From: a virus | IMG/VR virus record: IMGVR_UViG_3300022689_000178 | Coordinates: 12,825 to 76,824 of that record | Length of the DNA: 64,000 nucleotides | Direction: 5' to 3' (one strand) | Program-made: the position numbers and the translations under genes | Part shown: piece by piece, positions 4,171-64,000 of the stretch | Layout: every line of letters starts with the position of its first letter | Numbering within the stretch: the first letter of the stretch is position 1 | Notes under the pieces: model-generated | Seen by the model: only the letters and a program-made list of their open reading frames with translations | Told to the model about the DNA's origin: nothing | Database searches by the model: none

Positions 4171-4223
4171 TGGTAGCAGTTAGTATAACACACCGTTTTA
4201 ATGTGTGTTATACATTGTTAGCT
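4171..4223 (+). repeat. attC-like site A1 (left core degenerate, TGGTAGC)
   Basis: Stem GTATAACACAC/GTGTGTTATAC, right core GTTAGCT. Confidence 0.7.
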
Positions 4224-4266
4224 GACTGGTGCGGATAATTTAGTACAAATCTTAATAAATGAACGA

Positions 4267-5250
4267 ATGATAGTAAAAGAAAAAATAGGGAGGGGGTTTT
4301 TATATTTTATGGACGTATTGGAGGGTTTAAAATTACTACTTGACAATAGCCAAGATTTAATAATAGTTGACCCACCTTATTACAAGACTGTAAATGAGAA
4401 ATGGGATAAACAATGGAAGACCGAAAAAGAATATTTAGACTGGTGTAGATTATGGTTTGCTGAATGCGTAAGAGTACTGAAAGACACAGGTAGTTTTTAT
4501 TGCTATGGAAACTTTGACATACTGAGCAAACAAAAAGTATTGATATTTGATGATGCGCTGAACTTTAGGCAAAACATTACATTAAACAAAGGATTGAAAA
4601 GTATTGCTGGAAGAACAAGCGACAAACTTAGAATGTTCCCGACTGCAAGTGAATACTTGGTGTTTTACACTAAACAAGAAATGTGGTTTGAAACACCCTT
4701 TTCAATTATTATGAAAAGACAAATGAAAGAAAAGGGATTAACTCAGATTGATATTTCTAAACTTATACTTTCACGAAATGGTAATTTAACTGGATGGGTG
4801 CATAATAAGATTAAGGGCATACAATTGCCAACAGCAGAGCAATGGAACAAAATATGCAATTTGTTTGAAATTAAAAATGAATATGATTTATTGTGTGAAA
4901 GCTACGAAGAACAAAGGTTTACTTTTAACCTACCAACAGGACAAACCGATGTTTGGGATTTTACGCCCGACAAAGTTAGATTTGGAAATAAGACACAGAA
5001 ACCACAAGACATAAGTAGAAGAATTATAAAAGCAAGTAGTAACGAAGAACAAAGTGTATTGATACCATTTGCAGGGAGTGGAAGTGAATGTGAAGCTTGC
5101 GAAGTATTGGGTAGAAATTGGACTGCGTTTGAGAATGACCAATTTAGCATTGACATTATACACGAACGATTTAAAAACCTTAAAGCTTTTGAAAAAAGCA
5201 AAGAGCGTGGGCTTTTTTCTTTTACGGATGAACAGAACAAAGCTGATTAA
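4267..5250 (+). CDS. DNA amino-methyltransferase (m6A/m4C, beta class) with inserted HTH; cassette-borne
   Basis: Motif IV DPPY near N-terminus, TQKP, and motif I PFAGSGS near C-terminus. Confidence 0.9.
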   Translation: MIVKEKIGRGFLYFMDVLEGLKLLLDNSQDLIIVDPPYYKTVNEKWDKQWKTEKEYLDWCRLWFAECVRVLKDTGSFYCYGNFDILSKQKVLIFDDALNFRQNITLNKGLKSIAGRTSDKLRMFPTASEYLVFYTKQEMWFETPFSIIMKRQMKEKGLTQIDISKLILSRNGNLTGWVHNKIKGIQLPTAEQWNKICNLFEIKNEYDLLCESYEEQRFTFNLPTGQTDVWDFTPDKVRFGNKTQKPQDISRRIIKASSNEEQSVLIPFAGSGSECEACEVLGRNWTAFENDQFSIDIIHERFKNLKAFEKSKERGLFSFTDEQNKAD

Positions 5251-5271
5251 ATGCACCAACGTAGCACTTGC

Positions 5272-5357
5272 AGCTAATGAAAATACACTTGCATAGTTTG
5301 ATTTTTTGTGTAGTGCAACGGAACAAAAAACAAATTATGTCAAGTGTAATGTTATGA
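5272..5357 (+). repeat. attC-like site A2 (left core AGCTAAT, mutated)
   Basis: Stem TACACTTGCATAGTTTG/CAAATTATGTCAAGTGTA with one extrahelical base; right core GTTATGA. Confidence 0.8.
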
Positions 5358-5398
5358 GTATTTTTATTTATTTTTCCGTTGTGCCATATAATATCAAA

Positions 5399-5623
5399 AT
5401 GAAAAATACAATAACGATAAATAATATAGAATTTGAAATAGGAACTATAAGTATAAATGAATTTGGCGGGCAAACAGTGTCCTCATTAATTGTTGGTGTT
5501 TATGCTGAAAACAAGGATCAGAATATATTTGTAAAACATAATGTATTCAACAGTACAATAAAAAACTTAGAATTATTGAAAGATATTTTAACCGTTTTAA
5601 CTACAAAAAAATATGATTTTTAA
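5399..5623 (+). CDS. Cassette hypothetical protein (likely start MKNTITIN, not 5306)
   Basis: ORF-track start lies inside attC A2; ATG at 5399 follows the AT-rich leader. Confidence 0.55.
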   Translation: MKNTITINNIEFEIGTISINEFGGQTVSSLIVGVYAENKDQNIFVKHNVFNSTIKNLELLKDILTVLTTKKYDF

Positions 5624-5684
5624 AACAGGTTTTTCAAATAAATTAATGTCGAAAAAGAAAATATAAACTTTTAAATAAATAAAA

Positions 5685-6029
5685 ATGGAAAGTATAAAAA
5701 TAGAAATTGATAGAAAAAACATTCTTGATATTGTAAATAATAAAGTGTCGGAAAATATTTTATCTTATATGGACAAAAATATGGAAGATATTAATAAAAG
5801 TATTGAGAAATATTTTAAGTTATCTTTTTTTCAGGATAAAAAAACACAGTTTGAAAATGCACTCGATTGGACAATTGAAGATGCTTTTAGAGAAGGAATA
5901 AAGACAGCTATGGAGGATTTAAAATTCAAAGAACTTATTGCCGAAAAAGCAAAAGAAATTTTAACAAATGATGATTTTATTAAAGAATTAGCTGTTGCAA
6001 AAGTCAAAAGTTCGCTTGGTTTACATTAA
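5685..6029 (+). CDS. Cassette hypothetical protein
   Basis: Stop abuts left core CCATAAC. Confidence 0.65.
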   Translation: MESIKIEIDRKNILDIVNNKVSENILSYMDKNMEDINKSIEKYFKLSFFQDKKTQFENALDWTIEDAFREGIKTAMEDLKFKELIAEKAKEILTNDDFIKELAVAKVKSSLGLH

Positions 6030-6158
6030 CCATAACGGCTACTTGTAAGAATAGTAGCAGAATTGAAACACGAATATTGAAATAATTACAAACTTAAATA
6101 CAATGGTAGCAGCTAAAAAGACCCTATAACCTGCTATTATTTTTACAAATTGTTATAG
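6030..6158 (+). repeat. attC-like site A3
   Basis: CCATAAC ... stem TTGTAAGAATAGTAGCAG/CTGCTATTATTTTTACAA ... GTTATAG. Confidence 0.8.
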
Positions 6159-6177
6159 GGCGTTTATTTTAAAAATT

Positions 6178-6375
6178 ATGATTGCAAAAAAAAAAGGAAT
6201 AGAAATATTTCACAAACATTGGGATGAAGGATTATCTGATAGACAAGCAAAGGAATGTGCCTTAATAAGTGTTGGTGAAATTATTAAAGAATATGACGAA
6301 GAAATATTGGAATCTAACGATGTATATCGACAGCAATATTGGATAGAAGTAAGGGATTATTTAAATGCCCTATAA
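6178..6375 (+). CDS. Cassette hypothetical protein (AKECALI.V.EI...YW.EV small phage family)
   Basis: Stop TAA lies inside left core; flanked by GTTATAGGGCGTTTA/TAAATGCCCTATAAC. Confidence 0.7.
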   Translation: MIAKKKGIEIFHKHWDEGLSDRQAKECALISVGEIIKEYDEEILESNDVYRQQYWIEVRDYLNAL

Positions 6376-6470
6376 CGACAGGGGTTGGAGGCGGTTTTTT
6401 GCTTTGCAATTTTGCGAAGTGAAACGAGCAAATGTAAAGTTTAAAACTGACTTCCAAACCTCTGTTAGCA
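6370..6470 (+). repeat. attC-like site A4
   Basis: CTATAAC ... GGGGTTGGAGGCGGTTTT/AAAACTGACTTCCAAACCTC ... GTTAGCA. Confidence 0.8.
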
Positions 6471-6519
6471 ACACTTTTTTTTATCTTATCGAAATACAAA
6501 CATTTTAAATATAAATATT

Positions 6520-6846
6520 ATGAATACAGAATTGTACGATAAAGCATGGGAATTACTTGAAAGAAAAGGCTTAAAACTTGGCGAAAGAATAATGGTAAGA
6601 AGTTGTTTTGCAGGTGCTTACAAAAATGATTATCCTTTCATTGCCGCTAAACATAAAAAAGGCGAAGTTGAATATTATCATTCTCAAATAAAAGAAATAA
6701 ACAATTTAATGTTTAAATCTAAAAATGAAGTAATAATGGCAAATGCTATTTATGAAAACACAAAAGAGAATTTCAATCAAAATGATTTTATTCAGCATTT
6801 AAAATTTACTTTTAGAATTTTGGGTGTTAGTAGCGACTGGTGTTAG
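6520..6846 (+). CDS. Cassette hypothetical protein
   Basis: Flanked by GTTAGCAAC/GTTGCTAAC. Confidence 0.7.
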   Translation: MNTELYDKAWELLERKGLKLGERIMVRSCFAGAYKNDYPFIAAKHKKGEVEYYHSQIKEINNLMFKSKNEVIMANAIYENTKENFNQNDFIQHLKFTFRILGVSSDWC

Positions 6847-6850
6847 TTGT

Positions 6851-6918
6851 TGCTAACGTAATTTGCTTTATTTCTGTTTTTGATGTATGAAAAAATTAAA
6901 TTAAAGCAAATGATATGA
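6851..6918 (+). repeat. attC-like site A5 (right core mutated, GATATGA)
   Basis: TGCTAAC ... ATTTGCTTTA/TAAAGCAAAT ... GATATGAGTATTTT; compare GTTATGAGTATTTT at 5351 and 62586. Confidence 0.65.
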
Positions 6919-7515: not shown

Positions 7516-7555
7516 TGATTAGTGATGAATATTTAGACAAATTTTTTAACAAGAA

Positions 7556-8314: not shown

Positions 8315-8933
8315 ATATAATGAAAAATTAATATGTGAATTGATTTTTTATAATCGTAGGAAATTTGGTTATATTACCAAATATACAGCATTAGTAATAT
8401 GGCAAATGTGCCAGAAAATTATTCAAAGGGGTGTATATTTGTATAAAAAAAATGAATACAAGCATAAAACGAAATCAATATTTACCGAAGATGATATAAA
8501 AATTGATTTATATGAGTCAGTATTTTGTAATGTATTAATAAAATTTGATAAGAATAAAGGAACTTTTAGATATTTGTTAAATAAGTCTATAAATTACAGA
8601 ATACTTCGCTTAAAAGAATTAAATAGGGTAAAAAATAATATATCCGTAAAATTAAATGGACAGGATGAAACAAAAGGTAATGAAAGTATATTAAACGAAG
8701 ATTATAGAGTTTTATCCGGAACTGATTTTAATAGGGATTTAATAATATTTGGTTTAAAGAATTATGGTTTTACGGATAATGAGATTAATGTGATAAATGA
8801 TATTATAGATGGGTATAAAACAAGTAAAGAAGACAATATAAATGATGATATTTGTATACGAAATAATATTAGTTATTTTGAATACCAACAAATTAAAAAA
8901 AAATTTAAAAAAATTATACATAACTTAATTTAA
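8295..8933 (+). CDS. Phage sigma70-family sigma factor (candidate late sigma)
   Basis: Region 2-like KFDKNKGTFRYLLNKSI; region 4-like FTDNEINVI..IIDGYK...IC..NNIS...YQQIKKK. Confidence 0.65.
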   Translation: MDIPKFKYNEKLICELIFYNRRKFGYITKYTALVIWQMCQKIIQRGVYLYKKNEYKHKTKSIFTEDDIKIDLYESVFCNVLIKFDKNKGTFRYLLNKSINYRILRLKELNRVKNNISVKLNGQDETKGNESILNEDYRVLSGTDFNRDLIIFGLKNYGFTDNEINVINDIIDGYKTSKEDNINDDICIRNNISYFEYQQIKKKFKKIIHNLI

Positions 8934-33043: not shown

Positions 33044-34606
33044 ATGGATTACAATAGCTTTAAAAAATTAGTACTCAGCAAAAATAATTCAGAAGATATT
33101 GATCAATTATTGAAAGCAGTTGAAACTGAATATGAATTGGGGAGTAGTACAAGTGCGACCGGACTTGACCCGTTAAAACTTGAAAATTTATCGGCATACA
33201 TGGCATCTATTGTTGCCGATAATGAAACAATTAAATTATCAAAATCATTAAAACGAATTCCATGTACATCAAATATGTACGAAGTACCAAGACATTTAAC
33301 ACATGGAACTTGGTTTGGTAATTATGGTAATTTCGGAGAACAATTAGGGCTTGGTGATAACCAAGAAACCGATCATGATCGTGCATTAGTTAAAATTAAA
33401 TATCAGGTTGAAAATAGAGAAGTATCAATTGCTGCAAGTTTAATTAATTTATACGGTGGACAGGGAACAAATAAAACAAGTGGTGGCCGAATTGATGGAA
33501 AAGCATATAATCAGGCATTGGAAATTGAAACAACCAGTGGTTTGCAAGAAATGGCTATTAATGAAAATAAAGGATTATGGTTTGGTAATTCAAGTGTTGA
33601 TCCTCGTGCTTTTGATGGCATATTAGAATTACATAAATACAAAAAACAAGGCGATCCTACATCAAAGCATACACCGGAAGAATATAGTCAATTGAAAAAT
33701 GTATTTGACTTGCGGGGTTCTAAATTAACGTATGGCAAATTAAATGAAGTACAACGTGCAATTATGAGTCAATGGGGTATGGCCAATTCATTCTTTGGCG
33801 CACCTTCAATAATTGACGATTTATCCAGTGCTGATTTAGAATTGATTCGTAGGATAAATCAAAATGAACCTAAACAATTAGAAAATTTAACAGTTGGACA
33901 AAGTATTTCGGCATTTAATAGTCAACTTGGAGGTAAGATAGCATTAAATTGGGACTTTCATTTAGAACGGCATGTTGAAGGCACAGGTACAGGTGAAAAT
34001 TATGGGGATAGTTGGAAAATAAATGATCCAAATCAAAACATTAGAACCAATGCACCTGCAAGTCCTGGTACTACTTCAAATACAGCCGTTGGTGATGCAT
34101 TATCTAAATTTGGAGCTACTGATGCCGGCGATTATTTTTATGCGGTTGCCGCCGTTGGAGATTATGGATTATCAAAACTTGTATTAATGAATGCAACTGC
34201 CGTAACAGTAGCGGCTGGACAATCAGTTGATTTAGTATTTGCTGATGGTGCTGGCACCTATCCGACCAGAGGTTATGTAATTTATCGTTCGGAAAAAGAT
34301 GCACCAGACGCAACAGGTTATTTTTATCCAATTTTTGAAATTAGCACTTCTGAACTTGCCGCAGGTTATGATGGAGGCGCTGCAACAGTAGTGAGAGATA
34401 GGAATAGAACGTTAGTACATACCCAGGATGCTGTAATGTTTTATAATGATCCTCGCATTATACATGTACCGGAATTATTGCCATTAACACGTATTCCATT
34501 AGCACGTACTCAATTAAGTGATAAATTTGCATTAGCCCATTTTTACGCTTTAGCAATGCCAACACCACAAAAAATTGCGATTATACGAAATGTTGGTAAT
34601 TCCTAA
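33044..34606 (+). CDS. Major capsid protein
   Basis: LLKA cleavage-type motif, LK.ENL, WFGNS...FDGI, NVFDLRG, ELLPLTRIPLA, P.KIAIIRNV (Herelleviridae-like MCP). Confidence 0.92.
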   Translation: MDYNSFKKLVLSKNNSEDIDQLLKAVETEYELGSSTSATGLDPLKLENLSAYMASIVADNETIKLSKSLKRIPCTSNMYEVPRHLTHGTWFGNYGNFGEQLGLGDNQETDHDRALVKIKYQVENREVSIAASLINLYGGQGTNKTSGGRIDGKAYNQALEIETTSGLQEMAINENKGLWFGNSSVDPRAFDGILELHKYKKQGDPTSKHTPEEYSQLKNVFDLRGSKLTYGKLNEVQRAIMSQWGMANSFFGAPSIIDDLSSADLELIRRINQNEPKQLENLTVGQSISAFNSQLGGKIALNWDFHLERHVEGTGTGENYGDSWKINDPNQNIRTNAPASPGTTSNTAVGDALSKFGATDAGDYFYAVAAVGDYGLSKLVLMNATAVTVAAGQSVDLVFADGAGTYPTRGYVIYRSEKDAPDATGYFYPIFEISTSELAAGYDGGAATVVRDRNRTLVHTQDAVMFYNDPRIIHVPELLPLTRIPLARTQLSDKFALAHFYALAMPTPQKIAIIRNVGNS

Positions 34607-54641: not shown

Positions 54642-54675
54642 TTTCTACTGCGTTAAGGATGTAGCTTGCTATTGC

Positions 54676-54803
54676 CCTTAACGTACAAGTATATGGCAAG
54701 GTGGGTTTAAAGTACTGACCTATCGAGCCACAATAAACTTAATTTAAAGCACTAAAGTAGCGATTTGGAACGATGCCCCACTTTGCTATATACATTGTTA
54801 GGC
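54676..54803 (+). repeat. attC-like site B1
   Basis: CCTTAAC .. GTATATGGCAAGGTGGG/CCCACTTTGCTATATAC .. GTTAGGC. Confidence 0.85.
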
Positions 54804-54822
54804 ATCTGTAAATTTTACGATT

Positions 54823-55050
54823 ATGGAAAACGTACTAAGATTTGAATACGAAAAAGGTGTACAGAAAGTGTATCCTGCAAATTGGATGGTAAAGAACTGG
54901 ATATTCAAAGAAGATGAAAAAGACGAAGCAACACTTGCACACGCAATGGCTATTGTCGCAGAAAAGAACGGTATGAGTAGTAATGACCTACAACACCTTT
55001 TTCCTGCTGTACTAAGGATGCTTAAAAGTGATATTGATTGGGCTAAGTAA
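54823..55050 (+). CDS. Cassette hypothetical protein
   Basis: Between B1 and B2; extended flank match TAAATTTTAC/GTAAAATTTA. Confidence 0.7.
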   Translation: MENVLRFEYEKGVQKVYPANWMVKNWIFKEDEKDEATLAHAMAIVAEKNGMSSNDLQHLFPAVLRMLKSDIDWAK

Positions 55051-55060
55051 AATTTATTGC

Positions 55061-55189
55061 CCTTAACGGCTTGTATATGATTTTGCAGGCATTATGAGAG
55101 CCGAAACTTTGATTATCTACATACTTGAAACGAGAAATAAAAATTGAATTATAAACATAACTGCCTATAAATTATATACTTTGTTATAT
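55061..55189 (+). repeat. attC-like site B2
   Basis: CCTTAAC .. GTATATGATTTTGCAGGCA/TGCCTATAAATTATATAC .. GTTATAT. Confidence 0.85.
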
Positions 55190-55223
55190 GCTTTTATAGT
55201 GCGGTGGCAAAAACATAGAAACG

Positions 55224-55511
55224 ATGAAATTAATAATATGCTTAGAGTGTATGGATGTATTTAACCTAACTAAAGAAACTAAAACTTGTAAATGTGGAGA
55301 AAGTAGCGGTAAATACATAGATAACTTAAATGCAGAGATAAAAGGAAACTGTAAAGGTATCGGATTTGCAAATAGTAAATTTCAAATTGCTTACCAAATA
55401 CAAAAAATGGAAGATGAAGCACAAAAAGAAAAACCAAGTTGTTGTGATGGAGTGGAATTTACGGCTTTCTTTATTCCTGAAACTGCTACGAGTATAAAGC
55501 GTGTAAGCTAA
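55224..55511 (+). CDS. Cassette Cys-rich (zinc-binding) protein
   Basis: CLEC.D...CKCG; flanks GTTATATGC/GCATATAAC. Confidence 0.7.
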   Translation: MKLIICLECMDVFNLTKETKTCKCGESSGKYIDNLNAEIKGNCKGIGFANSKFQIAYQIQKMEDEAQKEKPSCCDGVEFTAFFIPETATSIKRVS

Positions 55512-55515
55512 TTGC

Positions 55516-55580
55516 ATATAACGGCAATGTACTTAAATAGTTGTGAGGCACGAACAATTATTTTAAGTGTAATGTTAAGG
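55516..55580 (+). repeat. attC-like site B3
   Basis: ATATAAC .. ACTTAAATAGTTGT-GAGGCACGA-ACAATTATTTTAAGT .. GTTAAGG; near-identical to B11. Confidence 0.85.
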
Positions 55581-55642
55581 GCTTTTATTTATTAATTTAT
55601 CGTGCTGTTAATTAGTAATTTATTCACATAAAAAATATTAAG

Positions 55643-56569
55643 ATGAAAAACACAAGTGTGAAAAAAAGAAGTATTAAAAGTTTAATGGTTGCAAGAAATG
55701 CACTTGCAAAACTTTCAAAAGAAGAAGTTTCAGAATTAGAAAGTCAAATTTACATAGATAAAAAAATCAGATGCGTTGATGCTGTTCACATTGACCAGAG
55801 TGGAAACGTAAGTGAAAGTGAAAGTTCTACGTGGTTCATTCCTGAAAACTTAGATTTTGACATCGAAGTTGGAGACACACTTGTCGTTCAACAGGTTGCC
55901 GGAATCGGGCTTGCTTTCGTGAAAGTCATTTCAGAAATCTACGAAATGACAAAAGAAGAACATGAATACAATCTCCATCCTTATTGTCCTATAATCTCAA
56001 ATTTTGGGCAGCGTTTAAATAATACGTTCACAGACGAACGTGACGGAACTGTTTATAAAACCGTCAAAATTGGCAACCAGATATGGATGGCTGAAAATAT
56101 GAGATATAAAACAAATAAAGGGTGTTTGGCTTATGATAACAAACGAAGCAATGTTGAAAAATACGGTTATTTATATACATGGAAAGCAGCCAAAAAAGTT
56201 TGCCCCGCAGGTTGGCATTTGCCAAGCGATGAAGAATGGAAAACCCTTGAAATGCATCTTGGTATGAGCCAAGCTGATGATAATGGATACCGTGGAACAG
56301 ATGAAGGTTCTAAACTGAAAAGCACAAGTGGATGGTATGATAATGGCAACGGAACTAACAAAAGTGGTTTTAATGCTTTGCCTGGTGGTTTTTGCTACTA
56401 CTACGATGGCACGTTCGTCTACGCTGGCAAGCGCGGCTACTGGTGGACGAGTACTCGAAACGAAAGTAAAGACGTATACTACCGCTTTCTGGGCTATGAC
56501 GGCGGCGGAGCGACCCGCTACTATTGGCACCGCAAGAATTTGTTCAGTGTCCGCGCGATAAAAGATTGA
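55643..56569 (+). CDS. Fib_succ_major (FISUMP, CLec-fold) domain protein with DGR-type variable C-terminus
   Basis: FTDERDG.VYKTVKIGNQIWMAEN, YG.LYTW, CPAGWHLPS..EW, SGFNALPGG, G.WW.ST, FSVR.IKD; last ~180 nt are GC-rich and full of NNC codons. Confidence 0.88.
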   Translation: MKNTSVKKRSIKSLMVARNALAKLSKEEVSELESQIYIDKKIRCVDAVHIDQSGNVSESESSTWFIPENLDFDIEVGDTLVVQQVAGIGLAFVKVISEIYEMTKEEHEYNLHPYCPIISNFGQRLNNTFTDERDGTVYKTVKIGNQIWMAENMRYKTNKGCLAYDNKRSNVEKYGYLYTWKAAKKVCPAGWHLPSDEEWKTLEMHLGMSQADDNGYRGTDEGSKLKSTSGWYDNGNGTNKSGFNALPGGFCYYYDGTFVYAGKRGYWWTSTRNESKDVYYRFLGYDGGGATRYYWHRKNLFSVRAIKD

Positions 56570-56702
56570 ACGTTTTGATGTTGCCAACCAGAACGACAAG
56601 AACCTCATTTTGCGTGCTATCGTACTTGCAAAATTCAGACTACACAAAGCATTATAAAAGAATATTTTAATTATTAATCTAAAAAATTAAAAAACATAAA
56701 TT

Positions 56703-57044
56703 ATGGGAACTACTAAAAAAATAGGAAACTGGAAAATTAGAGAAACTAATTATGGTAATATTATAAAAATAAATGACATAAGAATAATGTCATTTGAAGA
56801 ATTTGGAGGCGATTATGAAAACACGCACTATTCCTTCGATGAGGAGAAGTGCAATAAACTTGGAGTAAAATGCAGGTTCGTACCTTCAGATGAAACTCCC
56901 TCGCAGGTAATAAAAACCCTTGAGAAAGAAGGGGCTACTGTGTTAGGTACTACAAAATTTGGTTACAGCACTTGTAACTTCCGTACTCCACAATGCGACA
57001 GAAACCCGTTAGACGTCGTTCTCTATATTCACAGATCGGAGTAG
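56703..57044 (+). CDS. Hypothetical protein
   Basis: ORF track. Confidence 0.6.
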   Translation: MGTTKKIGNWKIRETNYGNIIKINDIRIMSFEEFGGDYENTHYSFDEEKCNKLGVKCRFVPSDETPSQVIKTLEKEGATVLGTTKFGYSTCNFRTPQCDRNPLDVVLYIHRSE

Positions 57045-57107
57045 AACAATCGGAAATGGAGGAAATTTAGTCTTAATTTCGTTATGTGTAGCGGTGTATT
57101 TCGTTGC

Positions 57108-57187
57108 ACATAACGACTACGGCTTTGTGCAGTGAGCGTCAGGATTTTTTGAGCGGTGGGAAAATTGCACCAAAGCCGCTGTTATGG
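57108..57187 (+). repeat. attC-like site B4 (preceded by ORF-less mini-cassette 57081-57114)
   Basis: ACATAAC .. CGGCTTTGTGCAGT/ATTGCACCAAAGCCG .. GTTATGG. Confidence 0.85.
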
Positions 57188-57249
57188 TTTTTATTAATCA
57201 TTTCAGCGTATAATTTTCAAAATATTAATCTTAAAAAAACTTAGGAATT

Positions 57250-57573
57250 ATGTATAACTATTATAAATTTATTCCAGAAATTGTAAAAATAGTTAATGAT
57301 AACAAAAGTTTCTCATTAACAGACGACAATATAGAAAAAGTACTTTCCTCATTGTCGAATGCGGCGGATTTAGAAACAGAATACCCGGGTAACGTAGAAA
57401 TGTGGGCTGGTTTTTTGCTGTTAGGGTATAGATTAGGACAAATAAACAGTCTTAACGAAATTAGTAATAAAGTTCCTTTAATTAAGGAAAATATAATCAA
57501 AACAGGAATGAAGGATTTAGCTGTTTGTTTAAAAACCGAATTCCCTGATTTGAATGTAGAGTATTCAGATTAA
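57250..57573 (+). CDS. Cassette hypothetical protein
   Basis: Flanks GTTATGGTT/AACCATAAC. Confidence 0.7.
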   Translation: MYNYYKFIPEIVKIVNDNKSFSLTDDNIEKVLSSLSNAADLETEYPGNVEMWAGFLLLGYRLGQINSLNEISNKVPLIKENIIKTGMKDLAVCLKTEFPDLNVEYSD

Positions 57574-57642
57574 CCATAACGGCATAGTGTTTAGGGAGTT
57601 TTGCCTTTTTCAGGCAAAATTACCTTAAACACTGTGTTACCC
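57574..57642 (+). repeat. attC-like site B5
   Basis: CCATAAC .. CATAGTGTTTAGGGAGTTTTGCC/GGCAAAATTACCTTAAACACTGTG .. GTTACCC. Confidence 0.88.
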
Positions 57643-57793
57643 ACCTTTTTTTTATTTCATCTGATTATCAGTACAATAAAAAATAAATAAAAAATAATTA
57701 CAATAATTGCAATCATATACAATAATCATACTTATCTTTGCGTTATATTAATACAAACAAAGTTTAATTATTCATTTATAAAAACAAGAAATT

Positions 57794-58114
57794 ATGTTAC
57801 ATTTAGAAAAAGCAATCACCGCAAAAGAAATTAGAAATTCAAATCTAACTGAAAATTGTGTGTTATCACATGATTTTCAAAATGGAATGTATTTTCTTTG
57901 TATAAATTCAGTGAGAAAATATAGTTTCAAATGTTCTTCTGACGTTACTAAGTCAGTTAACAAGATAAAAAAAATGGGTTTTGGTTTTGGAACACATGAA
58001 AAACAATTAACAGATGAAGAAGAGGGATTAATCCAAGCAACAAAAAACGGTGAAAATCCTTTTGCCTATTCTATTATTTGTGCAAACCCAAAACTAAATA
58101 AAATCGTAAAATGA
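57794..58114 (+). CDS. Cassette hypothetical protein (gene 1 of a two-gene cassette with its own promoter)
   Basis: TATCTTTG at 57733-57740; ATGA overlap with next gene. Confidence 0.65.
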   Translation: MLHLEKAITAKEIRNSNLTENCVLSHDFQNGMYFLCINSVRKYSFKCSSDVTKSVNKIKKMGFGFGTHEKQLTDEEEGLIQATKNGENPFAYSIICANPKLNKIVK

Positions 58115-58344
58115 AAAACGAAAACATATTAAAAGCTCTCGACTGTTTGTCGGGGGCTGCCTTTGCAAAGGCTGTTTGGAATATTGATTGGGTTGAATTG
58201 TCAAAAACAGAAAAGAACAGCTATAATCAAATGATTTTCCACCGGAGAAAAACCGGAGCTTTCAAACTACACGAAATAAATAGTATTAAAAGTTACTTGC
58301 AATCTAAAATAACGGACTTTGATGTCGTTTTAAATTGTGGGTAA
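58111..58344 (+). CDS. Cassette small HTH-like protein (gene 2)
   Basis: LSGAAFAKAVW ... FKLHEI..I..YL pattern; stop lies in left core. Confidence 0.55.
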   Translation: MKNENILKALDCLSGAAFAKAVWNIDWVELSKTEKNSYNQMIFHRRKTGAFKLHEINSIKSYLQSKITDFDVVLNCG

Positions 58345-58392
58345 CGAAAATGTAATAAAAGCGTTTTAATGCTTTTTAATACAATGTTATGG
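58339..58392 (+). repeat. attC-like site B6
   Basis: GGGTAAC .. TGTAATAAAAGCGTT/AATGCTTTTTAATACA .. GTTATGG. Confidence 0.85.
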
Positions 58393-58447
58393 TTTTTAAT
58401 CATTTCATTGTGTTAATTATCAAAATATTAACATTAAATAATATATA

Positions 58448-58897
58448 ATGAAACCATATAAGTATTTCAGTTCTCTACATAATTTATATGACGATAATTT
58501 CAAGTTACTGAAGAAGAACAGATTAAAAATAGAAAAAGAGGCAATAAAGTGGCTTTCTGGATTTGGCTATTCATTTGGAACACACAATGTAGGATGTAAC
58601 GATGATATAGTTTATTATTACACTACGGGGAGTCTATCCTTTTCAGTTAAAGGATTAGGTGATTATACGTTTAGATTTATAATTCAAATGTATCATTTTT
58701 GCAATTATAAAACTTCTTTTTTCATGGAAGGATATAAGTATGGAAAGAGAGTAAAATCAGGGGACAAATCAGGGAAATTGAGAGATGAAAATCCTTACGA
58801 TGATTTTCGTTATTACGAGAATATTAATTGGGATTGCGGTTACATATTAGGATTATCAGATTATACAATAGATAGTTTTCTGGATTTGTTTCATTAA
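58448..58897 (+). CDS. Cassette hypothetical protein
   Basis: Flanks GTTATGGTT/AACCATAAC. Confidence 0.7.
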   Translation: MKPYKYFSSLHNLYDDNFKLLKKNRLKIEKEAIKWLSGFGYSFGTHNVGCNDDIVYYYTTGSLSFSVKGLGDYTFRFIIQMYHFCNYKTSFFMEGYKYGKRVKSGDKSGKLRDENPYDDFRYYENINWDCGYILGLSDYTIDSFLDLFH

Positions 58898-58966
58898 CCA
58901 TAACGGCATAGTGTTTAGGGAGTTTGGGCTTTTTCTGCCTAAATTACCTTAAACACCATGTTAGCA
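58898..58966 (+). repeat. attC-like site B7 (near-copy of B5)
   Basis: Arms GTGTTTAGGGAGTTT/AAATTACCTTAAACAC identical to B5; right core GTTAGCA. Confidence 0.88.
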
Positions 58967-58996
58967 ACTCTTTTTCATCCAACAAACATAAAACAA

Positions 58997-59941
58997 ATGA
59001 CTGAAATACTACATACAGGCGATAATTTAGAGTATATGCAGACGCTACCAAGTGAAAGCATTGACTTAATTTATTCAGATATTTTATACGGTACAGGTCG
59101 CGATTTTGGTAATTATAAAGATATAAAAGCAAACCGTAAAGATGTAGAAGAGTTTTATATTCCACACATTAAAGAGATGCACCGTTTGTTAAAAAAAACA
59201 GGTAGTATTTATTTGCAAATGGATACGCGAATTAATCATTATATAAGGTTAATTTTGGAAAATATTTTTGGAGTAAAAAATTTTATAAATGAAATTGTTT
59301 GGAAAAAAAGGAATAATACAAATAACATAGAGACTAATTATTTTAACCTTAATCATGATTTAATTTTATGGTATTCAAAAAGCAAAAATTATATATTTAA
59401 TAATGCTTATTTGCCTTTGTCTTCCGAAACAATAAAAAGGTATAACAGGAAAGATGAAAATGGTTTCTATTGTTTACAACCTATTTATAACAAATCTGGC
59501 AATTATAATAAATACACTACTTTAACATTAAATGGTAAGGAATATAAAGGATTTTATTCTTGGACGCAAAAAACATTAGATAAAAGATTACAAGAAAACT
59601 ACATTGTTGAAGAAAATACAAATGAATACTTATGCTACCGAAAATATTTGCAGACTTCAAAAGGTTCTCAAATAAGCGATGTTTGGACTGATTTAATTGA
59701 AGGTAGTGGAATTAAAAGGGAATACCAAACTCAAAAATCTATTGAATTAATGTCCCGAATAATAAAAGCAAGCTCAAATGTTGGTGATGTTTGCGCTGAC
59801 TTCTTTTGCGGTTCGGGCAGTTTTGGAGTTGCAGCAAAAAAATTAAACAGAAACGTAATTTTAAACGACATAAATCCCGAAGCAATTAAATTAAGTCAAA
59901 AGCGGTTGAACGATGCTTGCGACTTATTTAATTGTTGCTAA
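58997..59941 (+). CDS. Cassette DNA amino-methyltransferase (beta class)
   Basis: GDNLEYM, IDLIYSDILY (variant motif IV), TQKS..L, DFFCGSGS. Confidence 0.85.
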   Translation: MTEILHTGDNLEYMQTLPSESIDLIYSDILYGTGRDFGNYKDIKANRKDVEEFYIPHIKEMHRLLKKTGSIYLQMDTRINHYIRLILENIFGVKNFINEIVWKKRNNTNNIETNYFNLNHDLILWYSKSKNYIFNNAYLPLSSETIKRYNRKDENGFYCLQPIYNKSGNYNKYTTLTLNGKEYKGFYSWTQKTLDKRLQENYIVEENTNEYLCYRKYLQTSKGSQISDVWTDLIEGSGIKREYQTQKSIELMSRIIKASSNVGDVCADFFCGSGSFGVAAKKLNRNVILNDINPEAIKLSQKRLNDACDLFNCC

Positions 59942-60064
59942 CGGCTGGCGGTATGCGCTGGCTGGGATTAAAAGCAGAAACTTTCAAAAACAGATAAACA
60001 ATGAATAAAATTACAGACAATAAAAATAGCACGAACCCCAGCTTGCGTATAACGCATGTTAGCG
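59936..60064 (+). repeat. attC-like site B8 (loop contains the ATG of the next ORF)
   Basis: TGCTAAC .. GCGGTATGCGCTGGCTGGG/CCCAGCTTGCGTATAACGC .. GTTAGCG. Confidence 0.85.
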
Positions 60065-60369
60065 GTTCGGCTTTAATCGCTAAGTTTATGAAAAATACTG
60101 GTAGAAACGCTTTGGTTAAAGAATTTCAAAAGATGCAAGGATTACCAGAAAAGGACTACTATAATAGTTGGGATTGGCTTATGCCGGTTTATCGTAAAAT
60201 ACGAGATATTATAAATGAGCGGTCAAAATATGATAAACATACAAGGACTGAATATGATTTACTTGAACTTGATGCACAGATGGCAATTTGCGAAGTGGAC
60301 ATTGAAAAGGCGTTTATTTCAATCGTAAAGTTTATTGAATGCTGGAATGTTTCCAAAGCTGACCGCTAA
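60001..60369 (+). CDS. Cassette protein (LIAxFM...SWDWLMPV phage family); start codon inside attC B8
   Basis: Family motif LIAKFM lies upstream of the first internal ATG. Confidence 0.7.
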   Translation: MNKITDNKNSTNPSLRITHVSGSALIAKFMKNTGRNALVKEFQKMQGLPEKDYYNSWDWLMPVYRKIRDIINERSKYDKHTRTEYDLLELDAQMAICEVDIEKAFISIVKFIECWNVSKADR

Positions 60370-60496
60370 CGTTGAGCATATGCGGTCGTTGCTGTTTTAA
60401 ATAGAATTACGAACTTTCAAAAACAGATGTAATATGGAAAAAGAGACTAAACAACAAATTGACTACACGGCAATGCCGTATGATGCATTGTTAGGT
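60364..60496 (+). repeat. attC-like site B9 (loop contains the ATG of the next ORF)
   Basis: CGCTAAC .. GCATATGCGGTCGTTGCTGT/ACGGCAATGCCGTATGATGC .. GTTAGGT. Confidence 0.85.
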
Positions 60497-60787
60497 GTAG
60501 TTGTTTCGGGCTGCAAGTTCAAATACTTCTCATATGACCATAAGAAAGCCATAGAAGAGTACTGCACAAGTGATGATTATAAAGACGTGCGTAAGTGGAT
60601 TTCTAATCCAAATAGCTATGAAATGCCTGATAAGCTGAAAGAAAAATATAAGACTGAAAGAATTGGTAAACTACGAGAAATACACTTTGCTCCAACGGGT
60701 AAAGCATATAAATTTAAAATAGGTGCTAAATATGCAAAAACATACGGGTTAGATGATTTTGGTGTAAAAGTATTCCCGTTGGTTTAA
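60434..60787 (+). CDS. Cassette hypothetical protein; start codon inside attC B9
   Basis: No in-frame ATG in the first ~44 codons after GTT. Confidence 0.65.
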   Translation: MEKETKQQIDYTAMPYDALLGVVVSGCKFKYFSYDHKKAIEEYCTSDDYKDVRKWISNPNSYEMPDKLKEKYKTERIGKLREIHFAPTGKAYKFKIGAKYAKTYGLDDFGVKVFPLV

Positions 60788-60791
60788 TTAC

Positions 60792-60844
60792 ACCTAACGA
60801 AAGTATTAAAAGCATTTTAATGCTTTTTAATACTTTCGTTATAC
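60792..60844 (+). repeat. attC-like site B10 (minimal, 53 bp)
   Basis: TAACGAAAGTATTAAAAGCATT-TT-AATGCTTTTTAATACTTTCGTTA, perfect except for one extra T. Confidence 0.9.
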
Positions 60845-60901
60845 CTGTTTTTTTATCGGTGTAACATTATCAAAATAAATATTAATCTAAAATATATAAT
60901 T

Positions 60902-61204
60902 ATGAAATTTGAAAAAGAAATCTTAAAAGCATTAGATGTGTCATTTCCGATGAATGGTGTAGAGTTTTCAAAGTGCGAAAAAATAGAGTATTTAATATCT
61001 GAGTTGCTCGAAAAACAACACGAAGCAACAAAAAAAGCGTGTGCCCAAAATGCTAAAATAAAACTATATAATGAAGATTTATCAGGAAAAGAAATAGATA
61101 TTTATGAAACTGATAATTATATCGAATGTGCAAAAGAAATGAATAGTTTTGCTGAAATATCAAAAAATAGTATTTTATCAGTTAATATGTCAGATGTTAG
61201 TTAG
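60902..61204 (+). CDS. Cassette hypothetical protein
   Basis: Flanks GTTATACCT/AGGCATAAC. Confidence 0.7.
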   Translation: MKFEKEILKALDVSFPMNGVEFSKCEKIEYLISELLEKQHEATKKACAQNAKIKLYNEDLSGKEIDIYETDNYIECAKEMNSFAEISKNSILSVNMSDVS

Positions 61205-61269
61205 GCATAACGAACATGCACTTGAAAAGTTGTGAGGCACGAACAATTATTTTAAGTGTAATGTTATAG
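61205..61269 (+). repeat. attC-like site B11 (near-copy of B3)
   Basis: AGTTGTGAGGCACGAACAATTATTTTAAGTGTAATGTTA shared with B3. Confidence 0.88.
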
Positions 61270-61310
61270 GTTTTATTATTCATTTATTCGTGTCGCAAAA
61301 TATTAAAGTT

Positions 61311-61712
61311 ATGTTCAAAACATTAAACAAAGTAGCTGGTTTTTTTGATAAAAACGTTGAATTGTCTAAAAAAGATTTATCTGATTGGTTCACTCCGCAA
61401 GGTATCAGGTGTTTGGAAAAAGATGGTTATATTGAAAATCAAATAACTAATCCCGATTTTGAAAATGTAACGATGGAAGTTGGAAAGATGTATTTCATTT
61501 CCTTCGGCGAAAATACTCAGTTGATTGTAAGGTTGAGAAAAAAAGATAGTGTCCATTATCATTTTACCTCTTGTTTGCATTATTGGAATGGTTTTGAAAG
61601 TTTCAAGTATTCTGATTATTGCCAGATTTCAGGCATTACAGAAATAAGAGAAGCTTCAAAGCCTGAAAAATTCAAATTATTTGAAATGGAAGTTGAACAC
61701 GGTATTATTTAG
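61311..61712 (+). CDS. Cassette hypothetical protein
   Basis: ATG at 61311 after leader. Confidence 0.65.
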   Translation: MFKTLNKVAGFFDKNVELSKKDLSDWFTPQGIRCLEKDGYIENQITNPDFENVTMEVGKMYFISFGENTQLIVRLRKKDSVHYHFTSCLHYWNGFESFKYSDYCQISGITEIREASKPEKFKLFEMEVEHGII

Positions 61713-61716
61713 TTAT

Positions 61717-61848
61717 CGATAACGTTGAGCATATGAAGCGTACAGGATTTATAAGCAGTAGCCTGTCCGGTACGTAAAATGACAAATAAAGGCACAACTG
61801 CAAAAACATGGCACAAACACCTGTATGCTTTATGATGCAGTGTTATAG
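61717..61848 (+). repeat. attC-like site B12
   Basis: CGATAAC .. GCATATGAAGCGTACAGG/CCTGTATGCTTTATGATGC .. GTTATAG. Confidence 0.85.
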
Positions 61849-61865
61849 CCAGTTAATTTAATATT

Positions 61866-62060
61866 ATGAAAGAAGTATCTAAATATGAGCGATGGGAGTT
61901 TGTTAAAGATAAAAATGTAACATATACCGCTTCCGGTGATTATCCATATACTGGATTATGGAAAGATAAGGGTGGGAATATTATAGCAAAAGATGTTCCA
62001 GTTGGTAAACACATTGGTGCAAATTCAGACAAATATAAACATTACATAGCCTCTGTTTAA
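61866..62060 (+). CDS. Cassette hypothetical protein
   Basis: Flanks GTTATAGCCAGTTAA/TTAATTGGCTATAAC. Confidence 0.7.
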   Translation: MKEVSKYERWEFVKDKNVTYTASGDYPYTGLWKDKGGNIIAKDVPVGKHIGANSDKYKHYIASV

Positions 62061-62064
62061 TTGG

Positions 62065-62155
62065 CTATAACGACAAGCATTGTAAACGTTTAATTTTGAG
62101 CGTTTGCAATGTGTGTCAGCAGAAAATTAAATGTTTAACAATGCCATGGTTATGC
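62065..62155 (+). repeat. attC-like site B13
   Basis: CTATAAC .. GCATTGTAAACGTTTAATTTT/AAAATTAAATGTTTAACAATGC .. GTTATGC. Confidence 0.85.
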
Positions 62156-62193
62156 TTATTTTTAATCATTTCATGGCGCAAAAATTAAAATAT

Positions 62194-62547
62194 ATGAAGG
62201 CTAAAATTTACATAAAAAATTACTTATCAGATTTTCAAAATAGGTGTTTTAATGAAATACCGATTGATGAAATAAAAACAAAATCAGGCGAATTAGCAGT
62301 TAATATACTTTCTGAATTTCACGAAATATGCAAAGCGCGTGGAATAAAAAAGGGTAGTACCGAAATAGCATTAGTAAATGTAATTAAGGAATTTAATCAT
62401 AAATGGAAGATTATTTGTTTCGGTGTTAATAATTTCTTTGAAAAAACTTTTGATATATCTGTTTTAAAAACAGAAGGTTTCCTGGAATTGTTTAAAGCGT
62501 CAGAGCACAAACTTGAATATCTTATTGACATGTATTGTATCAAGTAA
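62194..62547 (+). CDS. Cassette hypothetical protein
   Basis: Flanks GTTATGCTTA/TAAGCATAAC; start at 62173 or 62194. Confidence 0.65.
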   Translation: MKAKIYIKNYLSDFQNRCFNEIPIDEIKTKSGELAVNILSEFHEICKARGIKKGSTEIALVNVIKEFNHKWKIICFGVNNFFEKTFDISVLKTEGFLELFKASEHKLEYLIDMYCIK

Positions 62548-62592
62548 GCATAACGACAAGCGTTGTTAATGCACCCCAAAGCAATGTTATGA
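62548..62592 (+). repeat. attC-like site B14 (short, internally deleted or hybrid)
   Basis: Left arm TAACGACAAGC.TTGT as in B13, but right arm not complementary; 45 bp. Confidence 0.65.
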
Positions 62593-62655
62593 GTATTTTT
62601 TCTCATTTCGTTGCTTATACAAAAAATAAAGTATTCACTATTAAATCATTATCAA

Positions 62656-63015
62656 ATGCAAAATTCAGATTTTATAAAAATATTAACCGAAAACAACAGA
62701 TTATTACGCGAACATACTGCTATGAATTCTAAAAATGAAAAATTATCAAATAATTCAATACTCCAAATAAATGCTAACAATCAATTCATTGACAAATTAA
62801 AGGATTGCAAACTTCCTGAAATAAACGAATTTAAGGTCTCTAAAATAATTGCATCTGTTGACAGATATAAACATCCATTTAACACGATGAATATAAAGCA
62901 AATTGAAGATTATTTACATTTAAAGCTTCAATCGAATATAAAAAAGGATAATATCTTATTTCAAGAGCGTATCGGGTATATTGAAGCTATAATGCTACTT
63001 TGTGAGCTTATTTAG
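62656..63015 (+). CDS. Cassette hypothetical protein
   Basis: Flanks GTTATGAGTA/TACTCATAAC. Confidence 0.65.
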   Translation: MQNSDFIKILTENNRLLREHTAMNSKNEKLSNNSILQINANNQFIDKLKDCKLPEINEFKVSKIIASVDRYKHPFNTMNIKQIEDYLHLKLQSNIKKDNILFQERIGYIEAIMLLCELI

Positions 63016-63019
63016 TTAC

Positions 63020-63113
63020 TCATAACGGTTAAGTATTGCAACCGTTTTTAAACGCAATACGTAAATATTAACGCAACACTGTATTAAAAATGGTTTGCAA
63101 TACAGTGTTATAA
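63020..63113 (+). repeat. attC-like site B15
   Basis: TCATAAC .. GTATTGCAACCGTTTTTAA/TTAAAAATGGTTTGCAATAC .. GTTATAA. Confidence 0.88.
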
Positions 63114-63124
63114 ACTTAATTATT

Positions 63125-63307
63125 ATGAATACAATATATTTATTTTTAGGATTAGTTGCTTTTTTTATTCTTATTTATTTAATAACAAGAAATATTAAAT
63201 GCCCAAAATGTAAAAAAAAATCAGTTAAACACTCTCATACGGAAAGAATTGGAAATACGGACAAAGATGTTTATGAGTGTAGAAATTGTAACGAAAAATT
63301 TGTTTAA
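63125..63307 (+). CDS. Cassette membrane-anchored zinc-ribbon protein
   Basis: N-terminal TM helix, CPKC...CRNC. Confidence 0.65.
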   Translation: MNTIYLFLGLVAFFILIYLITRNIKCPKCKKKSVKHSHTERIGNTDKDVYECRNCNEKFV

Positions 63308-63308
63308 T

Positions 63309-63536
63309 ATGAAAAAATTAGACGAAAAAGGTTTTGTTTTTTTAGATGCGAATAAAAAACCTTATTGGGTAGCTATCAGATGTGGAAACCCAATGCTCGC
63401 ATATTGGAATAACGATGGTTGGGTTAATTTAAGACAGATTAATCAAACACAAATTTGGCAATATTATCAATATGTTATTTCAGAAGAAGAAGCTGAAATT
63501 TATCATAAAAAATATTTAGCTAATCATTGTTTATAA
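63309..63536 (+). CDS. Cassette hypothetical protein (second gene)
   Basis: Stop lies in left core GTTTATAAC. Confidence 0.6.
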   Translation: MKKLDEKGFVFLDANKKPYWVAIRCGNPMLAYWNNDGWVNLRQINQTQIWQYYQYVISEEEAEIYHKKYLANHCL

Positions 63537-63595
63537 CGATGGTTATAAGATTAAGCGATAGCGACCCGTAGGGTTAATTTTATAACGTGTTACCT
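63531..63595 (+). repeat. attC-like site B16
   Basis: TTATAAC .. GTTATAAGATTAA/TTAATTTTATAAC .. GTTACCT. Confidence 0.85.
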
Positions 63596-63655
63596 ACTGG
63601 CACGGTAAATACAGTAGTATGTTGATTAAAAGTACTAACGTAATAATTTTTAAAA

Positions 63656-64000
63656 ATGTGGGATGGACAATATGCTTTTGAAAAAAGCATAATAATACAA
63701 GGTGATTGCCTTGAAAAAATGGAATTAATACCTGAGAAGAGTGTTGATTTTATTTGTTGTGATTTACCTTATGGAATGACAGCTCCGAAATGGGATGAAA
63801 TATTACCTGCTGATAAACTTTGGGAACAATATAATAGGATAATAGCAGAAAATGGAACAATTGCCCTATTTGCTTCACAACCATTTACAACCAAGCTAAT
63901 AAGTAGTAACGAGAAGGATTACAGGTATGTTTGGTATTGGGTGAAAAATCAAGCAACAAACTTCTTTCACGCAAAACGAATGCCAACAAGGAAGATTGAG
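63656..64000 (+). CDS. Cassette DNA amino-methyltransferase, N-terminal part (runs off the window); not in ORF track
   Basis: Hand translation MWDGQYAFEKSIIIQGDCLEKMELIPEKSVDFICCDLPYGMTAPKWD...FASQPFTTKLI.SN. Confidence 0.85.
   Translation, partial: MWDGQYAFEKSIIIQGDCLEKMELIPEKSVDFICCDLPYGMTAPKWDEILPADKLWEQYNRIIAENGTIALFASQPFTTKLISSNEKDYRYVWYWVKNQATNFFHAKRMPTRKIE

Follow-up and report, generated by a model that had tools for sequence, protein, structure and literature searches.

The window analysed here is the 64,000-base stretch covering bases 12825 to 76824 of the 76,824-base IMG/VR virus record IMGVR_UViG_3300022689_000178, and its end is also the end of the contig. In the last part of this window, from 54.65 to 64.0 kb, small open reading frames (ORFs) on the + strand are separated by imperfect hairpins, which a preliminary description had taken for the recombination sites of an integron-like array of gene cassettes. 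All 16 of the hairpins that it listed (S1 to S3 and S5 to S17) are present between 54.68 and 63.59 kb; each begins with TAAC and ends with GTTA, the TAAC..GTTA spans measure 39-127 nt, and the stems were confirmed by folding. The cores of the invariant 5'-AAC...GTT-3' foot that marks attC hairpins (57-141 nt) were found in 16/16 sites. The cargo is likewise phage-like, as had been proposed, with two N6_N4 methyltransferases, one Fib_succ_major protein and ORFans.

When the whole 76.8-kb contig was scanned for TAAC..GTTA pairs with an inner-arm duplex of -7 kcal/mol or below, 15 of the 16 sites were recovered together with two in a second array, and the other ~64 kb gave just three matches; the scanner is blind to variant cores (TAAT, GATA, GTTG) and to weak stems such as that of S15. 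A covariance model of the sites was attempted, and the MAFFT alignment failed on the variable loops and RNAalifold returned no consensus. A search of the sites against Rfam gave nothing beyond sub-threshold chance matches to the palindrome of S11.

Cassette ends pair across genes

In order to compare the ends of the putative cassettes, the bases just outside each GTT were set against the reverse complement of the bases just outside AAC. Across genes, 11 of 15 pairs matched perfectly for 6-7 nt, or 9-10 bp when the core is included, whereas none of the 16 core pairs within a site did so; in a further control, 4 of 225 non-adjacent pairings matched, and all four were repeats of one core. At the resulting background of 1.8%, the binomial probability of 11 matches in 15 is ~1e-16. 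The window therefore carries the signature of an attC array, in which the ends of a cassette pair and the cores of one site do not, and on this point the preliminary description was accurate: every complementary core pair that it listed is present, and stop codons do fall at the left core, inside TAAC for four genes and in the adjacent bases for several more. Its upper figure of 15 bp for the matches applies to the second array, where 14 of 15 positions agree across one gene (6152/6360).

The hairpins form a family that differs from canonical attC

A family pattern made up of the cores and the apical motif CGTTTTAATG was run on IMG/VR stretches, and at least 120 of them matched, many in several copies. 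Among the matches listed, the density was 0.49 sites/kb, arrays reached 19 sites, and matched ends (at least 4 nt beyond the 4-nt core) were seen in 53% of 282 adjacent pairs, against 2.1% within sites and 3.4% for non-adjacent pairs. The geometry of the family was derived from 364 unique sites located upstream of recombinase genes. TAAC is followed by a spacer of 5 nt in 70% of them (consensus G-K-T-T-K), and GTTA is preceded by one of 1-2 nt in 84%; the core consensus is (A/C)TAAC-G ... T-GTTA-(T/G), the median length is 110 nt, and in 82% of sites stability favours the coding strand, the mean difference being 1.75 kcal/mol. The window sites share these traits, being TAACG...TGTTA hairpins with spacers of 5 versus 1-2 nt, matched ends and ORFs on the strand that folds more stably; this is the top strand in 15/16 of them, and in 12/13 arm duplexes.

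In classical attC sites, each arm carries an unpaired spacer of 5-6 nt, an L box is present, two or three extrahelical bases lie on the '' arm, and the bottom strand is the stabler one (PMC5027507). This layout was not observed. Only S1 and S10 fit GTTRRRY (2/16 sites), the integron core consensus RYYYAAC/GTTRRRY is not kept, and there is no unpaired-central-spacer, L-box or extrahelical-base arrangement of the attC kind, so the identification of the sites as canonical attC has to be given up. The extrahelical base noted in the right arm does occur in ~7 window sites; it is not a feature of the family, in which unpaired bases number 192 and 190 on the two arms of the 364 sites.

These measurements bear on the simplest alternative, namely that the array is a classical cluster of attC sites lacking an integron integrase (CALIN), composed of canonical cassettes captured from, and serviced by, a host IntI with crossover at G|TT on the bottom strand. 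The conserved AAC/GTT cores, the attC-range lengths and a cassette-end signature identical to that of integrons would all be accommodated, and a homologous site in Polaribacter phage P12002L was called attC by HattCI, while 5/6 other phage attC sites recombined with IntI1 (PMC9892861). We nevertheless consider this alternative unlikely: the tested homologous site, P12002L_attC1, failed with IntI1, GTTRRRY is found in 2/16 sites, the spacers are 5 and 1-2 nt instead of a 5-6-nt spacer on both arms, the bulges show no arm bias, the top strand is the stabler by 1.75 kcal/mol where classical attC has a stabler bottom strand, and the arrays adjoin a recombinase other than IntI at their 3' end.

The strand bias also recalls the promoter early stem-loops (PeSLs) of T4-type phages. 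If the hairpins were PeSL-like terminator or promoter stem-loops, shuffled by homologous recombination between repeats, then better folding of the sense strand (with G.U pairs), the T-run and conserved leader behind most sites, and the recurrence of near-identical hairpins within arrays would be expected, and PeSL recombination and mini-circles are documented (PMC2839356, PMC4122927). Repeat homology, however, offers no way of giving each gene its own 6-7-nt inverted ends that start exactly outside an invariant 4-nt core, and a dedicated recombinase and a conserved junction accompany the arrays. Consensus scans for the two elements of a PeSL unit, a strong sigma70-like early promoter and a terminator stem-loop, gave 43 promoters against 49 expected and 5 terminators against 4.4, with the hairpins not called as terminators, although the promoter consensus used did not include Bacteroidota-type promoters. 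As a full account of the array this explanation is quite improbable. Roles in transcription and in recombination need not be mutually exclusive, and the sense-strand bias and T-rich leader leave room for a second role, at the RNA level.

A Xer-like recombinase is linked to the sites in other phages

No match to tyrosine (PF00589), serine (PF00239) or IS200-type/HUH (PF01797) recombinases was obtained in six frames of the whole contig, which bears out the absence of an integrase from the window. When PF00589 was applied to 30 array-bearing records, five matches resulted, each within or beside the array; the five proteins are 265-270 aa long and share 65-78% identity. A profile built from them retrieved 179 IMG/VR contigs, from which 80 loci were fetched, a sample chosen on the protein alone; the locus set consists of the 47 unique recombinase loci with at least 3 kb of upstream flank.

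In these relatives, a conserved, simple tyrosine recombinase of ~266 aa belonging to the Xer/IntI clade directly follows sites of this family and has their orientation. At least three sites were present within 5 kb upstream in 45/47 loci; on the recombinase strand, site density was 1.76/kb in the first 2 kb upstream, ~0.3 at -8 kb and 0.03-0.16/kb downstream. Matched ends were found in 70% of 321 adjacent pairs as against 3-4% in controls. The ORFs amount to 51,035 aa on the recombinase strand versus 8,057 aa on the opposite one, and the recombinase stands at the 3' end of the array, co-oriented with them, instead of at the 5' end with cassettes reading away from it as intI does in integrons.

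The enzyme carries the Pfam domains Phage_int_SAM_4 and Phage_integrase. Its best NCBIfam model, 'XerA / integron integrase', scored 184-195 bits, under the cut-off of 220, and the IntI model TIGR02249 matched in two pieces below cut-off; the best PDB match, Pyrococcus abyssi XerA, aligned from end to end. Alignment with VchIntIA (Vibrio IntI4, 2A3V) was broken, with 29 query residues facing 77, and the IntI-specific insertion is therefore missing from the array recombinase. That insertion defines integron integrases and is essential for their function (PMC8138268). The expectation of an IntI-like recombinase encoded elsewhere thus proved right in part: the enzyme does lie outside the window, but the companion of such arrays is a 266-aa XerA-like protein without the IntI insertion, located at the 3' end.

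The possibility that the hairpins are hairpin-dependent single-strand transposition elements (IS200/IS605-type HUH elements, or elements like repetitive extragenic palindromes with their transposases, REP/RAYT) lying between genes can be weighed at this point. Imperfect hairpins with a conserved tetranucleotide at the foot are what such elements possess, but the contig contains no Y1/HUH transposase, elements of this type do not give the genes they flank inverted ends of their own, and the enzyme of the relatives is a tyrosine recombinase; we regard the idea as barely credible.

Among bacterial genomes, a single close homologue of the recombinase was found, on a 2-kb contig of a metagenome-assembled genome (MAG). 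Other bacterial homologues reach at most 53% identity and come mostly from Bacteroidota; sites near them occur at a background density of 0.125/kb, one Bacteroidales MAG excepted. In that MAG (L293, JAQVVM010000005.1), eight TAAC..GTTA hairpins lie at 2858-8814, upstream of a recombinase of 48% identity, which could be a chromosomal or prophage version of the system. The integrases of flavobacterial phages at 37-40% identity (Freya, Ingeline) have no clear arrays upstream. Polaribacter phages Freya_1 to Freya_10 (MT732463-MT732472), which are isolates of a single phage, differ by up to 4.1 kb of small ORFs immediately upstream of their 37%-identical integrase, whose gene start varies from 83 to 4180; the scanner shows no regular array in Freya_10, and isolated GTATAAC/GTTATAC pairs are present there.

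The junction and the breakpoints lie mostly at the left core

In 41/47 loci, the recombinase gene is immediately preceded by a variable stretch that runs up to a TAAC, and directly behind this TAAC stands a conserved TAYNATATA (TAAC|TAnnWTATA); the boundary between cassette-specific and conserved sequence is therefore at the left core. In appearance, this junction looks like attI.

Reordering of cassettes is seen on comparison of three relatives (L128, L129 and L139), whose recombinase regions are 97% identical (97-100%) and in which blocks of 960 bp and 1.8 kb are rearranged; the blocks begin and end at TAAC. Over all loci, the internal endpoints of 95%-identical matches fell at the 5' core in 15 cases and at the 3' core in four. 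Where a recurring cassette had kept one of its flanking hairpins, it was the upstream hairpin in 12 cases and the downstream one in four, and the ORFs of two window cassettes, C9 and C10, start within the upstream hairpin loop with a common leader in front of them. Together, the junction, the breakpoints, the inheritance of hairpins and the starts of C9 and C10 favour recombination of the folded top strand at the AAC of the left core. In attC recombination, by contrast, the bottom strand is folded, the crossover is at G|TT of R' and the hairpin travels with the upstream ORF; the window sites and the relatives mostly show the opposite on all three points, with C17 as a counter-example, and the crossover at G/TT that the preliminary description had assumed is replaced by a junction that lies mostly at the left core (TAAC).

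The broader proposal of that description, that the genes are mobile cassettes exchanged by site-specific recombination at the cores of folded sites, is strengthened by this reordering at cores in relatives. It had named an identical gene order among related phages, with no exchange at the junctions, as the observation that would speak against it; since relatives carrying a near-identical system show reordered cassettes with breakpoints at the cores, that objection falls.

A proposed mirrored integron-like system in phages

As a whole, the observations are best explained, with a probability that we put at roughly 0.7, if the window holds at least 16 mobile cassettes of a phage-borne integron-like system that is served by a Xer-like enzyme and exchanges at the left core. 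Each unit is made up of a hairpin site (TAAC-G...T-GTTA), a T-rich leader and one or two ORFs, together with an end of 6-7 nt that is reverse-complementary to the sequence directly following its own GTTA; in an excised circle, the two ends would close the hairpin into a single long stem. Cutting and joining take place inside the invariant TAAC/GTTA core and the variable ends travel with each cassette. The complementarity holds across genes and not within a site because cassettes exchanged at the core carry their own variable ends.

The ~266-aa enzyme would act on the coding (top) strand in its folded form and recombine it at the 5'-AAC-3' of the left core, so that the hairpin would move with the downstream gene and new cassettes would enter beside the recombinase gene. 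Such a layout would be that of a classical integron seen in a mirror, with the cargo genes facing the recombinase: read from the opposite strand, there would be a recombinase, an attI and sites folding on the far strand, as in a classical integron, with the cargo inverted. Because the contig ends inside the array, within C17, the recombinase gene would lie beyond the end or be supplied in trans. The C17 protein is 82% identical to that of the next-to-last cassette before the recombinase in L198, and the presence of this methyltransferase there fits an enzyme located just beyond the end of the contig, although it is not proof. In its fuller form, the proposal is that many large phages of the Bacteroidota type carry a self-contained mirror integron, whose compact XerA-like enzyme without the IntI insertion captures and reorders cassettes at the left-core AAC of the folded coding strand and inserts them at the 3' end of the array, beside an attI-like TAAC|TAYNATATA site, the window being a large, recently active array with its enzyme just past the end; we lean towards this version with limited confidence.

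Several observations weigh against these interpretations. The C17 cassette recurs in L209 (89% nt identity, closing there with GTAGGTAAC), where the shared sequence begins with the GTTA of S17 and the hairpin upstream is another one, and in the window C5 and C7, which have a common leader and downstream hairpin and encode unrelated proteins, do not have the upstream hairpin in common. The breakpoint counts are small and non-independent, the folding bias of the top strand could have arisen from selection at the RNA level instead, and recombination is deduced here from the comparison of sequences. The link to the enzyme comes from other phages, because the contig has no recombinase and no close relative was found: both the ~266-aa recombinase and the TAAC|TAYNATATA junction are absent from it, and the attI-like motif occurs in the window no more often than by chance. 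Finally, the recombinase is absent from three complete or nearly complete site-bearing records, namely P12002L, G018 and G014 (of the last two, one is complete at 362 kb and one 94% complete).

Sites and cargo of the main array

All of the features described below are on the + strand. The array opens with a small palindrome, GTTAAGG..CCCTTAAC (54652..54682), in which an R'-type end faces an R''-type end with 16 nt between them, in the manner of an empty cassette, and whose TAAC is the left core of S1 (54679..54800, 122 nt). C1 (54823..55050) encodes 75 aa of no known family and has mismatched ends (AGGCAT vs AAGGGC). It is followed by S2 (55064..55186, 123 nt), a paralogue of S1, and by C2 (55224..55511, 95 aa), whose ends are GTTATATGC/GCATATAAC. 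S3 (55519..55577, 59 nt) has a loop motif in common with S12 and with phage P12002L. Two ORFs without a site between them come next (55643..57044), the Fib_succ_major protein (55643-56569) and a 113-aa ORF (56703-57044); as the ends of this unit do not match, it has probably decayed or fused. The last ~60 codons of the Fib_succ_major gene (56381-56640) have 52% G+C within a region of ~30%; a variable region of a diversity-generating retroelement was considered for this 3' end and rejected, the contig having neither a reverse transcriptase nor a template repeat.

A second empty-cassette-like palindrome, GTTATGTG..CACATAAC (57081..57114), directly precedes S5 (57111..57184, 74 nt). C5 (57250..57573, 107 aa) and C7 (58448..58897, 149 aa) both have the ends GTTATGGTT/AACCATAAC; the latter is an ORFan, without a homologue among 5.8 billion proteins. 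Between them are S6 (57577..57639, 63 nt), a near-copy of S8, the two-ORF cassette C6a/C6b (57794..58344, 106 and 77 aa, ends GTTACCCAC/GTGGGTAAC) and S7 (58342..58389, 48 nt), which bears the apical motif CGTTTTAATG. S8 (58901..58963, 63 nt) leads into C8 (58958..59941), an N6_N4 DNA methyltransferase homologous to P12002L_0036, with the ends GTTAGCAAC/GTTGCTAAC. The left arm of S9 (59939..60061, 123 nt) is homologous to P12002L_attC1, and its loop holds the leader and ATG of C9 (60001..60369, 122 aa, ends GTTAGCGGT/ACCGCTAAC); similarly, the loop of S10 (60367..60493, 127 nt) holds an S9-type leader and the ATG of C10 (60434..60787, 117 aa, ends GTTAGGTGTA/TACACCTAAC). Both early in-frame ATGs of C10 lie 5' of the GTTA core and none occurs between that core and codon 64; a TTG straddling the core may serve as its start.

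S11 (60795..60841, 47 nt) is a nearly perfect palindrome, and the ends of C11 (60902..61204, 100 aa) match at 5/6 positions. The differences between S12 (61208..61266, 59 nt) and S3 preserve pairing on the + strand alone (G.T); the ends of C12 (61290..61712, 140 aa) match at 4/6. S13 (61720..61845, 126 nt) is followed by C13 (61866..62060, 64 aa, ends GTTATAGCCA/TGGCTATAAC), and S14 (62068..62152, 85 nt) by C14 (62131..62547), which has at most 138 aa, the ATG at 62196 being the more likely start, and the ends GTTATGCTTA/TAAGCATAAC. S15 (62551..62589, 39 nt) has a weak stem and is the sole site that the scanner missed; C15 (62611..63015) encodes at most 134 aa and ends in GTTATGAGTA/TACTCATAAC. 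S16 (63023..63110, 88 nt) precedes the two-ORF cassette C16a/C16b (63095..63536, ends GTTATAAAC/GTTTATAAC), and S17 (63534..63592, 59 nt) precedes C17 (63656..64000), the 5' part of a DNA methyltransferase gene truncated by the end of the contig. C17 has no significant Pfam match; its classification as a methyltransferase rests on similarity, in DNA and in protein, to phage genes annotated as such. Pfam recognized an N6_N4 methyltransferase in C8 and in the second-array gene, along with the one Fib_succ_major protein, and assigned the remaining ORFs to no family; most cassette ORFs had no match in 2.2 Mb of other arrays.

The apical motif CGTTTTAATG, or a near variant of it, is found at 58360-58372, 60812-60824 and 62565-62577, and at 6030-6040 of L001. 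This motif and the second loop motif (S3/S12) are common to the source phage, P12002L and at least 120 IMG/VR contigs, in which the arms differ, and a protein may bind to the shared loops. Empty cassettes, with a GTTA-type end and the matching TAAC-type end 16-18 nt apart, were seen at 54652-54682, 57081-57114 and L198 9651-9679; in the last of these, the two ends surround the loop motif itself. On the 3' side of GTTA, most cassettes have 5-6 variable bases and then a T-run with a conserved TTTTTAATCATTTC-like leader (for example at 57181-57250, 58386-58448, 62149-62196, 62586-62656, 5351-5400 and 6912-6970), which may serve as a promoter or terminator tail or else belong to the recombination site.

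The second array and the source phage

The second array (4186..6915, + strand) belongs to the same site family and comprises five sites, one methyltransferase (4267-5250) and four small ORFs. Its sites lie at 4186-4220, 5275-5354 (core TAAT), 6033-6155, 6373-6467 and 6854-6915 (core GATA), and ordinary genes, with no recombinase, follow on its 3' side.

The record is linear, and its completeness was estimated at 72% by CheckV. It derives from a tailed phage, as seen from the large terminase (13487-15562), portal (15651-17330) and major head protein (33044-34606; all in window coordinates). Searches of IMG/VR with three proteins and two of the sites revealed no close relative of this phage; at the DNA level, the array region comes closest, at ~70% identity, to methyltransferase genes from phages of Flavobacterium, Polaribacter and Cellulophaga. 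A 1598-aa ORF (26175-30971) matches a phage DNA helicase and a family of DarB-like antirestriction proteins, and with this ORF and three methyltransferases the investment of the source phage in anti-restriction is heavy.

Comparison with known systems

Integrons are regarded as a bacterial invention tied to IntI, and the CALINs of phages as stray bacterial cassettes. Phage CALINs have already been published, and we found no paper describing the recombinase link or the reversed polarity. The evidence points to a separate and widespread phage system, with the recombinase on at least 179 IMG/VR contigs and the sites on many more. Like integrons, it relies on sites that fold as single strands and on cassettes that close on themselves, but its enzyme is a simpler, Xer-like one and its polarity is reversed; the window holds one large, well-preserved array of this kind without the recombinase. 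Such a system, if real, would explain the turnover of ORFans and of anti-restriction genes (e.g. methyltransferases) in large phages, would be relevant to how IntI arose from Xer-type enzymes, and would supply a compact new pair of recombinase and site for the engineering of single-stranded DNA.

CTXphi-type integrative mobile elements exploiting Xer (IMEX), which are mentioned in PMC8138268, undergo Xer-dependent integration of folded single-stranded phage DNA. They resemble the arrays described here in that a simple Xer-type tyrosine recombinase acts on a hairpin of one strand; they differ in having a single attachment site at which a whole phage genome is integrated by the host XerC/D, instead of a cassette array with a phage enzyme.

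In the PeSL cassettes of T4-type phages, too, small accessory ORFs in the hyperplastic regions of large genomes are set apart by stem-loops that have a conserved leader behind them (Arbiol et al. 2010, PMC2839356; Comeau et al. 2014, PMC4122927), and both shuffling and small circles as vectors of exchange have been proposed for them. Their exchange, however, is credited to homologous recombination; an invariant AAC/GTT core is missing from them, as are inverted ends specific to each gene and a linked recombinase.

The closest published arrays are those of Qi et al. 2023, who reported 17 attC clusters without an integrase in 10,705 phage genomes, including Polaribacter phage P12002L with its methyltransferase cassettes, and showed that 5/6 of the phage sites tested recombine with IntI1 (PMC9892861). 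The sole site that gave no IntI1 recombinants, identified by way of the supplementary primer table, is P12002L_attC1 (PMC9892861), the homologue of the left arm of S9; the IntI1-competent P12002L site has a different sequence and the opposite orientation. AttC-like arrays of phages are accordingly known, and from the failure of this homologous site the fit of IntI to the present family is doubtful. P12002L resembles the window in its TAACG...TGTTA hairpins around methyltransferase genes, in complementarity across genes (GTTGTATG/CATACAAC and GTTAGGCAC/GTGCCTAAC), in both loop motifs and the S9 left arm, and in a methyltransferase that resembles C8, and it too has no integrase. The phages of that study have 2-4 predicted sites each, which were read as canonical attC, where the window has 16 and a further five; no dedicated recombinase, reversed polarity or family-wide distribution is described there.

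Measured against classical integrons, including sedentary chromosomal ones such as the Vibrio superintegron, the phage enzyme is without the IntI insertion and stands at the 3' end, in the orientation of the cargo genes. In the phage sites it is the coding strand that folds better; the junction falls for the most part at the left core, so that the hairpin accompanies the downstream gene, the spacers are 5 versus 1-2 nt, and GTTRRRY is not kept. Common to both are co-oriented single-gene cassettes, folded single-strand sites with AAC/GTT cores, ends that pair, families of sites within an array, and a recombinase of the Xer/IntI branch beside an attI-like junction.

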